A stretch of DNA of 1,567 nucleotides from Escherichia coli (GTDB lineage Bacteria; Pseudomonadota; Gammaproteobacteria; Enterobacterales; Enterobacteriaceae). A model generated the notes under the pieces. The model did not search any database, was not told the origin of the DNA, and saw only the letters and a program-made list of their open reading frames with translations. The stretch lies in assembly GCF_003334355.1 (NCBI RefSeq), contig NZ_QOWP01000085.1. The stretch is one strand, 5' to 3'. The position numbers and the translations under genes are program-made. Positions 1 through 1,567 of the stretch are shown in pieces (position 1 is the first letter of the stretch; each line of letters begins with the position of its first letter).

Positions 1-1145
1 GACGATGCGGCTGCCGTTTTTGAGGATTCTGCACGGGTTTCCGACGCTTTCGCGTTCGTTTCGGATGTCTTCGCTGCGGAAGCAGACTTCGCTGCTGCGC
101 TGGCCTGTACAGCGGCTTCGCCAGCATTCGTTGTGGCTGTTGAAGCTGACGATGCAGCACTTTCTGCCGATTTTCCGGCGGCGGTGGCACTGGCTGAGGC
201 CTGCCCGGCACTTGTTGACGCGGCACTGGCAGATAATGCAGCCGCTGTTTTTGAGCCTGCCGCAGCTGAGGCGCTCTGTCCCGCTGCCGTTTCAGAAGAC
301 CTGGCGTTCGTCTCGGACGTTTTTGCCGCCTTCGCAGAATTTGCTGCCGCCGTTGCCGAGGAAGCGGCACTACTGGCGCTCGAGGCTGCGCTCGTTTCTG
401 ATGATTTTGCCGCCTCTTTTGAGGCCGCCGCATCCCGGGCTGAGGTGGCAGCTTCTGACGCCTTCGTGGTCGCGGCGGATGCAGAAGTGGCTGCTGATTG
501 TTGTGACGCTGCCGCATTCGTTTCTGACGTTTTCGCCGCAGCGGCACTGGTAGCTGCCGCGCTTTTTGAGGACTCTGCAGCAGCAGCACTTTTCGATGCT
601 TCACTGGCCTTTGTTGATGCCGTTCCTGCGCTGGAAGATGCTGACTGAGCAGATGATGCAGCCTGTCCGGCTGACGTGCTGGCGGCACGAGCTGAGCCTG
701 CAGCATCGGTTGTATGAGTTGCCGCCTCACTGGCAGATGTGCTGGCATCACTGGCTGACTTCTTCGCGGCTGCCGTGTTCTGTGCCACTGCGGACGCGTT
801 ACGCGCCACCTCTTCCACCATCAGTTCAAAACGTCGCAGAGCCTCCGGACGGGCATCATCCTCCGTCATGGCACCGAGAAAATCATTCAGCGTACCGGGT
901 CGGGAATCTTCATACACGGTGATGGTCCCGGCATGTGACGGCGGGAATCCTTCCACCAACAGAATAACGCTGTACTGACCGTACTCAACGTCCATGCTGT
1001 AACGCCCGGCTTCATCCGGATTTTCTGAGGCCAGCGTGTTCACCACCACCGCGGTGCTGTTACGTTTTGCTTTCAGCTGGATTGTGCAGTTCTGTACCGG
1101 TTTTCCTGTGCCGTCTTTCAGTACACCTGAAATCTTTACTGCCAT
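1..1145 (-). CDS. stf: Side tail fibre protein Stf (lambda orf-401-like), N-terminal 381 codons; 3' end runs off the window at position 1
   Basis: Hand translation of the minus strand from ATG (plus-strand 'cat' at 1143-1145) gives MAVKISGVLKDGTGKPVQNCTIQLKAKRNSTAVVVNTLASENPDEAGRYSMDVEYGQYSVILLVEGFPPSHAGTITVYEDSRPGTLNDFLGAMTEDDARPEALRRFELMVEEVARNAS, followed by a long Ala/Ser/Thr-rich region. The frame is open for 381 codons with no stop to the window edge. The N-terminus matches my recollection of lambda Stf/orf-401 and the gene sits directly downstream of lom as in lambda. Not in the ORF track because it lacks an in-window stop. Confidence 0.9.
   Translation of the reverse strand, partial: MAVKISGVLKDGTGKPVQNCTIQLKAKRNSTAVVVNTLASENPDEAGRYSMDVEYGQYSVILLVEGFPPSHAGTITVYEDSRPGTLNDFLGAMTEDDARPEALRRFELMVEEVARNASAVAQNTAAAKKSASDASTSASEAATHTTDAAGSARAASTSAGQAASSAQSASSSAGTASTKASEASKSAAAAESSKSAAATSAAAAKTSETNAAASQQSAATSASAATTKASEAATSARDAAASKEAAKSSETSAASSASSAASSATAAANSAKAAKTSETNARSSETAAGQSASAAAGSKTAAALSASAASTSAGQASASATAAGKSAESAASSASTATTNAGEAAVQASAAAKSASAAKTSETNAKASETRAESSKTAAAS
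3..806 (-). repeat. Protein-level heptad repeat array within stf (about 38 contiguous heptads, consensus x-[T/S]-S-A-[S/E]-x-A)
   Basis: Splitting Stf residues 114-379 into consecutive heptads gives Ser at position 3 in 31 of 38 heptads, Ala at position 4 in 25 of 38, and Ala at position 7 in 37 of 38, with no phase shift across the array. Counts are from hand translation. The DNA itself is not an exact tandem repeat. Confidence 0.7.
807..1145 (-). other. Stf N-terminal non-repetitive domain (residues 1-113), the part of phage tail fibres that usually attaches to the tail
   Basis: Residues 1-113 have mixed composition (aromatics, Pro, charged residues) with no heptad periodicity, in sharp contrast to the downstream Ala/Ser array. 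The attachment role is taken from general knowledge of lambdoid and other phage fibres, not shown by this sequence. Confidence 0.5.
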
Positions 1146-1148
1146 ATT

Positions 1149-1154
1149 CACCCC
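1149..1154 (-). promoter_or_regulatory. Putative Shine-Dalgarno region for stf
   Basis: Minus-strand sequence upstream of the stf ATG is ...UUUUUUGUGGGGUGAAU-AUG. The G-rich run GGGGUG sits at -9 to -4 relative to the A of ATG. Weak match to the GGAGG consensus; spacing is acceptable. Confidence 0.35.
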
Positions 1155-1156
1155 AC

Positions 1157-1183
1157 AAAAAAGCCCGCCTGAACAGGCGGGCT
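1157..1183 (-). terminator. Rho-independent terminator downstream of lom (minus-strand orientation)
   Basis: Minus-strand RNA would read AGCCCGCCU-GUUC-AGGCGGGCU followed by UUUUUU: a perfect 9-bp GC-rich stem (plus-strand 1162-1170 pairing with 1175-1183), 4-nt loop, and a 6-U tract (plus-strand A-run 1157-1162). It lies 27 nt after the lom stop. In the plus orientation no U-tract follows the hairpin. Confidence 0.65.
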
Positions 1184-1209
1184 GTCATAACACTGTGTTA
1201 CCTGGCTAA

Positions 1210-1567
1210 TCAGAACTTATAACCGACACCCACGATGAAACCGTCAGTGCGCCAGTCGCCACTGCCGGAGCCTTCATAAGCAATATCAATGGCCACGGAT
1301 TCGGTCGGGTTAAACTGCACGCCAGCTCCCCACGCCAGAGACGTGTTGCTGTGGCGACCGTCATCACTTCCGGTCAGCACGTCGTGCGTTTTCCCCTTGT
1401 TGTCAGTTACGCGGAGATAATCCCCGGAGAAAGTCGACACACGGCTGTAAGCCATACCCGCCATCGCATACGCGCTGAACCATTCATTCACGCGCACAGA
1501 CGGCCCCGCCATCACGCTGAACCAGCGGTTACGCACGGAATCTTCATGCCAGCGGGTATCGCTGTAA
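1210..1567 (-). CDS. lom: Lom outer membrane beta-barrel protein (Ail/Lom/OmpX/PagC family), C-terminal ~118 codons; true start lies beyond position 1567
   Basis: Minus-strand translation reads ...YSDTRWHEDSVRNRWFSVMAGPSVRVNEWFSAYAMAGMAYSRVSTFSGDYLRVTDNKGKTHDVLTGSDDGRHSNTSLAWGAGVQFNPTESVAIDIAYEGSGSGDWRTDGFIVGVGYKF then TGA (plus-strand 'tca' at 1210-1212). The frame stays open upstream of the track's GTG at 1536 through to the window end. The C-terminal aromatic residue and alternating hydrophobic last strand are typical of outer-membrane beta-barrels. Sequence matches my recollection of lambda Lom. Confidence 0.9.
   Translation of the reverse strand, partial: YSDTRWHEDSVRNRWFSVMAGPSVRVNEWFSAYAMAGMAYSRVSTFSGDYLRVTDNKGKTHDVLTGSDDGRHSNTSLAWGAGVQFNPTESVAIDIAYEGSGSGDWRTDGFIVGVGYKF

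Follow-up and report, generated by a model that had tools for sequence, protein, structure and literature searches.

The window analysed here is a 1,567-nt stretch of Escherichia coli DNA whose coding sequence lies entirely on the minus strand, running from the 3' part of lom through a terminator hairpin into the start of stf. The lom part (1210..1567, minus strand) consists of the final 118 codons plus stop codon of a gene for an Ail/Lom outer-membrane beta-barrel, as identified by translation, PHROG matching and annotation. Full-length matches to the window occur in roughly 3900 E. coli genomes. At 100% identity it is present in two complete chromosomes, those of strain 2018-05-5CC (NZ_AP027886) and strain PSS-12 (NZ_AP027697), which are referred to below as the exact-match genomes. 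The full 199-aa Lom of the NZ_AP027886 locus matches PHROG 108 'Lom outer membrane protein' (E 5.5e-110).

The stf part (1..1145, minus strand) is a stop-free ORF comprising codons 1-381 and 2 bases of codon 382. Its ATG lies at 1145..1143, and translation gives 381 codons without a stop up to the window edge at position 1. The frame matches PHROG tail fibre families with E values down to 5.5e-129, and in both exact-match genomes the gene is labelled 'prophage tail fiber N-terminal domain-containing protein'. A match to Pfam PF08400 'Prophage tail fibre N-terminal' spans Stf aa 1-134 (E 5.5e-71). Within this region, codons 1-94 (864..1145, minus strand) encode an N-terminal collar domain, as aa 1-94 match residues 1-94 of the solved Ur-lambda Stf collar domain, deposited as 'Tail fiber protein' in PDB 9E7M/9MGH (E 1e-50). 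An NCBIfam search matched no family for either Stf or the downstream Tfa, while Pfam, PHROGs and PDB did give matches. By these matches, the stf of the window is a lambda-type side tail fibre gene. The original prediction had placed positions 1-60 inside a reverse-strand stf, and the minus-strand ORF from 1145 to 1 with its PF08400 and 9E7M/9MGH matches agrees with that placement.

Several plus-strand ORFs in the window (5..553, 133..648, 566-922 and others) were considered as genes and rejected as mirror-image by-products of a GCN-rich coding strand; those opposite stf translate to Ala-rich pseudo-copies of Stf. The annotated orf206b of lambda (J02459) is the same kind of by-product. In the records of phages ev099 and phi458, plus-strand ORFs are annotated in place of the real 5' part of stf.

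Between lom and stf, a scan detected an intrinsic-terminator-like hairpin followed by a T-run (1156..1183, minus strand). The stem-loop occupies 1183..1162 and has 9 pairs, 7 of them G-C; the stf ATG lies about 11 nt past the T-run and is preceded by GGGGTGA. All six chromosomal relatives retrieved from E. coli carry exactly the same hairpin sequence, and in some relatives, such as mEp460, a terminator is annotated at this site. The hairpin may confine lysogenic transcription of lom, with Q-antiterminated late transcripts passing through.

Downstream of the collar domain, codons of about 102-382 (1..842, minus strand) encode a proximal coiled-coil rod, recognized by the periodicity of an Ala/Ser-rich S-A-x-x-A-A-x heptad. 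The rod extends past the window to about aa 498, and the pattern spans about 50 heptads, with a register that is uninterrupted over aa 116 to about 458. Autocorrelation of the protein sequence gives a self-identity of 0.37-0.42 at lags of 7, 14, 21, 28 and 35 residues, against about 0.2 at other lags, and short direct DNA repeats in the window have spacings that are multiples of 21 nt. Tandem Repeats Finder reported no repeats in the window, because the repeats of the rod are too diverged at the DNA level. The lambda counterpart of this region is the proximal coiled coil, aa 102-393, followed by a hinge at aa 394-422 (PMC12617516).

We aligned Stf with repaired lambda Stf using MAFFT local-pair. 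Residues 1-303 of the two proteins pair with each other, and lambda aa 304-385 resume at aa 409-490 of Stf. The intervening 105 residues (aa 304-408) are an insertion relative to lambda of exactly 15 heptads in register, so the coiled coil is longer with its register kept. The in-window part of this insertion comprises codons 304-382 (1..236, minus strand), and the insertion, which continues past the window edge, occupies 7922-8236 of the extracted NZ_AP027886 locus. The alignment is consistent with the boundary given by megablast, in which lambda matches only window positions 241-1337 at 86.6% identity. A blastp alignment of residues 1-509 with residues 1-509 of repaired lambda Stf was misleading, since it passes through the low-complexity rod, and was dropped. 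Window positions 1-60 correspond to codons of about 362-382, lie inside the insertion and have no lambda counterpart; they code for three heptads midway along the rod, a predicted trimeric coiled coil of Stf. Assuming a rise of about 0.15 nm for each residue, the proximal arm should gain roughly 15 nm from the 15 extra heptads.

Because the window holds only the 5' third of stf, which runs off its edge, the intactness of the gene is not decidable from the window alone, as the original prediction had correctly stated. The leftward extension that it had proposed was the right check and was carried out in both exact-match genomes. Both copies belong to a lambdoid prophage inserted in ydfJ, beside ynfT, ydfK and pinQ (the Qin site), and both have the gene order tape measure, M, L, K, I, J, lom, stf, tfa, pin. 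In each of them stf is one CDS not marked as a pseudogene, 3399 nt long in NZ_AP027886 (1132 aa) and 3351 nt long in NZ_AP027697 (1116 aa), and ORF listing and translation show the terminal stop only, with no stop for more than 730 codons beyond position 1. The 191-aa tfa follows directly, its start overlapping the stop of stf, and matches PHROG 105 'tail fiber assembly' (E 4.4e-99). The extension thus gave a continuous stf followed by tfa, which is the intact type of the two outcomes that had been foreseen.

The exact-match genomes share an identical stretch that reaches from 615 nt left of the window to 924 nt right of it, and the first difference on the left comes at 616 nt. Farther left, their stf genes differ only by substitutions and in the length of the His-rich tip repeats, by 16 aa. 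In the distal part of stf (locus 5747-7385), the first difference between NZ_AP027886 and NZ_AP027697 falls at codon 587, and the Tfa and PinQ proteins also differ. These distal differences represent a mosaic exchange of the receptor-binding end. The full Stf contains the Pfam domains Gp34_trimer (aa 663-762) and Collar (aa 907-954) plus fibre repeats; aa 902-1132 match the T4 gp37 tip (PDB 2XGF, E 2.8e-84), and aa 440-521 and 813-907 match Mu S (PDB 5YVQ, 8JU3).

Together, these data suggest, with a probability of roughly 0.87, that the window is the lom-stf junction of an E. coli lambdoid prophage with an intact stf, read in a single frame of 1132 (or 1116) codons and followed by tfa. This reading rests on ORF continuity, domain matches and gene order, from which we infer fibre assembly and function. 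An open stf frame is no proof of fibre production, as the prophage may be defective elsewhere. In strain LSN03-016011/A, which carries the same prophage type, a gpI-like tail assembly gene is annotated as frameshifted (9853-10424 of the locus), and tail modules with an intact stf can thus be defective elsewhere.

The reference for a broken stf is laboratory lambda. The original prediction had stated that a frameshift splits stf in the common laboratory strain, and the records bear this out. The lambda annotation (J02459) lists orf-401 (19650-20855), orf-314 (21029-21973) and then orf-194, which is tfa. Compared with a lambda imm21 record, the lambda PaPa sequence is one C short in a C-run at about 20832/20833 (context AAAAGCCC-ACTGG), and restoring the missing C in silico yields a single 774-aa lambda Stf. 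The lesion falls at lambda codon of about 395, at the boundary between the proximal coiled coil and the hinge in the Ur-lambda model, and this frameshift blocks side-fibre synthesis in laboratory lambda as compared with Ur-lambda (PMC12617516, citing Hendrix and Duda 1992). The lambda imm21 record itself (OM418625) carries the Ur-type C where PaPa has its lesion but is missing a T at lambda 19805 (about 907 of the locus), so that stf is annotated there as a short pseudogene plus a 2049-nt CDS, which is a different break.

One alternative is that a frameshift, a nonsense codon or an IS element interrupts stf of this copy at some point left of position 1, leaving a collar-plus-rod fragment as in PaPa. 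Such lesions exist in relatives that are 95-97% identical to the window, namely PhiR30_1 and ev099. PhiR30_1 has lost 1 bp at an A5G4-5 run (at about 3745, equivalent to 7745-7753 of the NZ_AP027886 locus), which leads to an immediate TAG and a first ORF of 467 codons, and it has a second frame change near codon 1051; the resulting 467-aa collar-plus-rod ORF resembles the product of the PaPa lesion, at a different site. In ev099, an in-frame stop occurs at stf codon 723 (2977-2979 of the locus), past which same-frame homology runs on to the end, at 93% identity across 1132 aa; the record lists two neighbouring 'tail fiber' CDSs. The breaks in ev099 and PhiR30_1 may be real mutations or sequencing errors.

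Disruption would also fit with the many PHROG 'tail fiber' families that are N-terminal fragments of 300-500 aa, and with the ease with which Stf-minus mutants arise in lambda (PMC2762979). Moreover, the exact-match genomes diverge from 616 nt left of the window, and a third copy could differ farther downstream. Against this, stf is uninterrupted in both exact-match genomes and in all four other chromosomal copies checked. These four copies, 97.8-98.1% identical to the window, each carry a single stf CDS, of 987, 987, 1023 and 1116 aa; among the chromosomal copies, the length of stf varies as a mosaic while the frames stay intact. The best phage record is 96.6% identical to the window, and phi458 has an unbroken ORF of 953 codons from the stf ATG. 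Nucleotide searches found no record that combines an identical window with a broken stf. We therefore consider disruption of this copy unlikely, and favour the intact, single-frame stf. The broken stf genes in phage records nevertheless make the general caution of the original prediction reasonable, though not its specific expectation of the PaPa lesion.

That expectation had put the junction at or just beyond position 1 and had taken a stop about 20 codons past position 1 as diagnostic of the frameshifted type. In our alignment, lambda codon 395 pairs with a residue near aa 500, which places it some 119 codons (about 355 nt) to the left of position 1, and positions 1-60 lie inside the 105-aa insertion instead. 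Stf and lambda Stf have already diverged at the PaPa-aligned site, that is, after PKAVK (aa 486-490). Since the two exact-match genomes are identical over the 615 nt to the left, the PaPa-aligned stretch is unambiguous, and it reads in frame: at the aligned position (aa of about 500, about 7648 of the NZ_AP027886 locus), the lesion context was not found and the sequence is unrelated. A PaPa-type arrangement, with an N-terminal ORF of about 400 codons and the C-terminal part in another frame, was not found either, as there is a single-frame ORF of 1132 or 1116 codons. Because stf here is a longer mosaic that is not collinear with the 401 codons of lambda, the PaPa site has no true counterpart and the 20-codon stop test does not apply. 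Judged from the exact-match genomes, the PaPa frameshift is absent here, without a homologous site. The PaPa lesion is private to a single laboratory lineage and is thus not expected in a prophage that is only 86.6% identical.

That this copy carries the PaPa lesion itself, in an orf-401/orf-314 arrangement, is accordingly a negligible prospect: it draws on the original statement about lambda and on the resemblance of aa 1-303 to lambda Stf (85% identity at the protein level), but the window is not lambda, its positions 1-240 are an insertion with no lambda equivalent, the exact-match frames stay open far beyond the proposed stop, and the lesion context is missing where it should align.

Among known systems, the closest to this stf is Ur-lambda Stf, which occupies the same place (after J and lom, before tfa) on the same strand and has the same collar domain and linker. 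The two proteins are about 85% identical over aa 1-303, share the S-A-x-x-A-A-x rod, and are about 70% identical over the last 230 or so residues, which form a gp37-like tip with His-rich repeats. They differ in length, 774 aa in Ur-lambda versus 1132 or 1116 aa here, and the rod here has the 15 extra heptads at aa 304-408. A middle part of about 400 aa (aa of about 491-900) is non-homologous to that of Ur-lambda and contains the Gp34_trimer domain and similarity to Mu S. As the variable tip part differs from that of Ur-lambda, the receptor need not be OmpC. The parts of Stf that match T4 gp37 (2XGF) and Mu S (5YVQ, 8JU3) all lie outside the window, and the T4 and Mu fibres belong to myoviruses and attach through different N-terminal domains.

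The locus also resembles the StfR/StfQ-type genes of Rac and Qin, which are accompanied by tfaR/tfaQ and pinR/pinQ: the stf-tfa-pin order is the same, and the prophage sits at the same Qin site. By annotation and context, the likeness to StfR is further seen in the PGAP name stfR for the gene in NZ_AP027886 and in tfaQ and pinQ alongside it in relatives. The Qin copy of K-12 is a remnant, whereas the J-lom-stf-tfa tail module of the present prophage is complete and open.

The adjacent pinQ encodes a 196-aa serine DNA invertase that matches PHROG 125 'DNA invertase' (E 8.4e-69) and lies at 4484-5074 on the plus strand of the NZ_AP027886 locus, about 100 nt beyond tfa. A serine invertase gene beside fibre genes is also found in the segments switched by Din invertases (Mu G, P1 C, e14 P). 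The neighbouring pin thus suggested an invertible stf-tfa segment. This was rejected, because the region contains no AAACCNNGGTTT-type crossover core and no convincing inverted repeat around stf-tfa. Between tfa and pin in NZ_AP027886, there is no second, oppositely oriented set of fibre tip and chaperone genes. The pinQ gene here looks like an orphan invertase. In the same region of phi458, we observed an oppositely oriented 'tail fiber' ORF and IS1.

We then propose an architecture for the fibre by homology to Ur-lambda, in which twelve Stf N-terminal domains encircle the tail tip at the gpV/gpM junction (PMC12617516). Three Stf chains would form one fibre, and their N-terminal domains (window 1145..864) would join a 12-membered collar at the gpV/gpM junction, docking the fibre on the tail tip. 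A short linker would lead into the trimeric Ala/Ser coiled-coil rod (window 842..1 and onwards), 15 heptads longer than that of lambda. After the proximal coiled coil would come a middle part resembling Mu S and T4 gp34, and the hinge and distal part would bear the gp37-like tip, which, as in Ur-lambda, may contact an outer-membrane receptor and speed adsorption. Tfa would act as the assembly chaperone that assists fibre assembly.

Two further speculations, which we regard as quite improbable, are that short homopolymer runs where the proximal rod ends are recurrent on/off switches of the side fibre, and that in-register heptad blocks, here of 15, are gained or lost to tune its reach. The candidate switch runs are C4 in lambda and A5G4-5 at codon of about 466-467 in the lineage of the window, at which PhiR30_1 lost one base. 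If such switches were real, phage populations would toggle between fast-adsorbing fibred forms and slow-adsorbing fibreless forms that keep collar and rod.

The biology of these fibres is already known, and the copy described here adds nothing new in kind. Since rod length varies by whole heptads and the gene is a mosaic, lambda coordinates (401 codons) are not transferable to relatives. Intact stf-tfa modules of this kind serve as parts in the host-range engineering of lambda-derived particles (for example, PMC11338833, PMC9659904). What changes is the annotation: the gene at this locus is best read as an intact StfR-like gene of a common E. coli prophage, and not as the crippled version of laboratory lambda.
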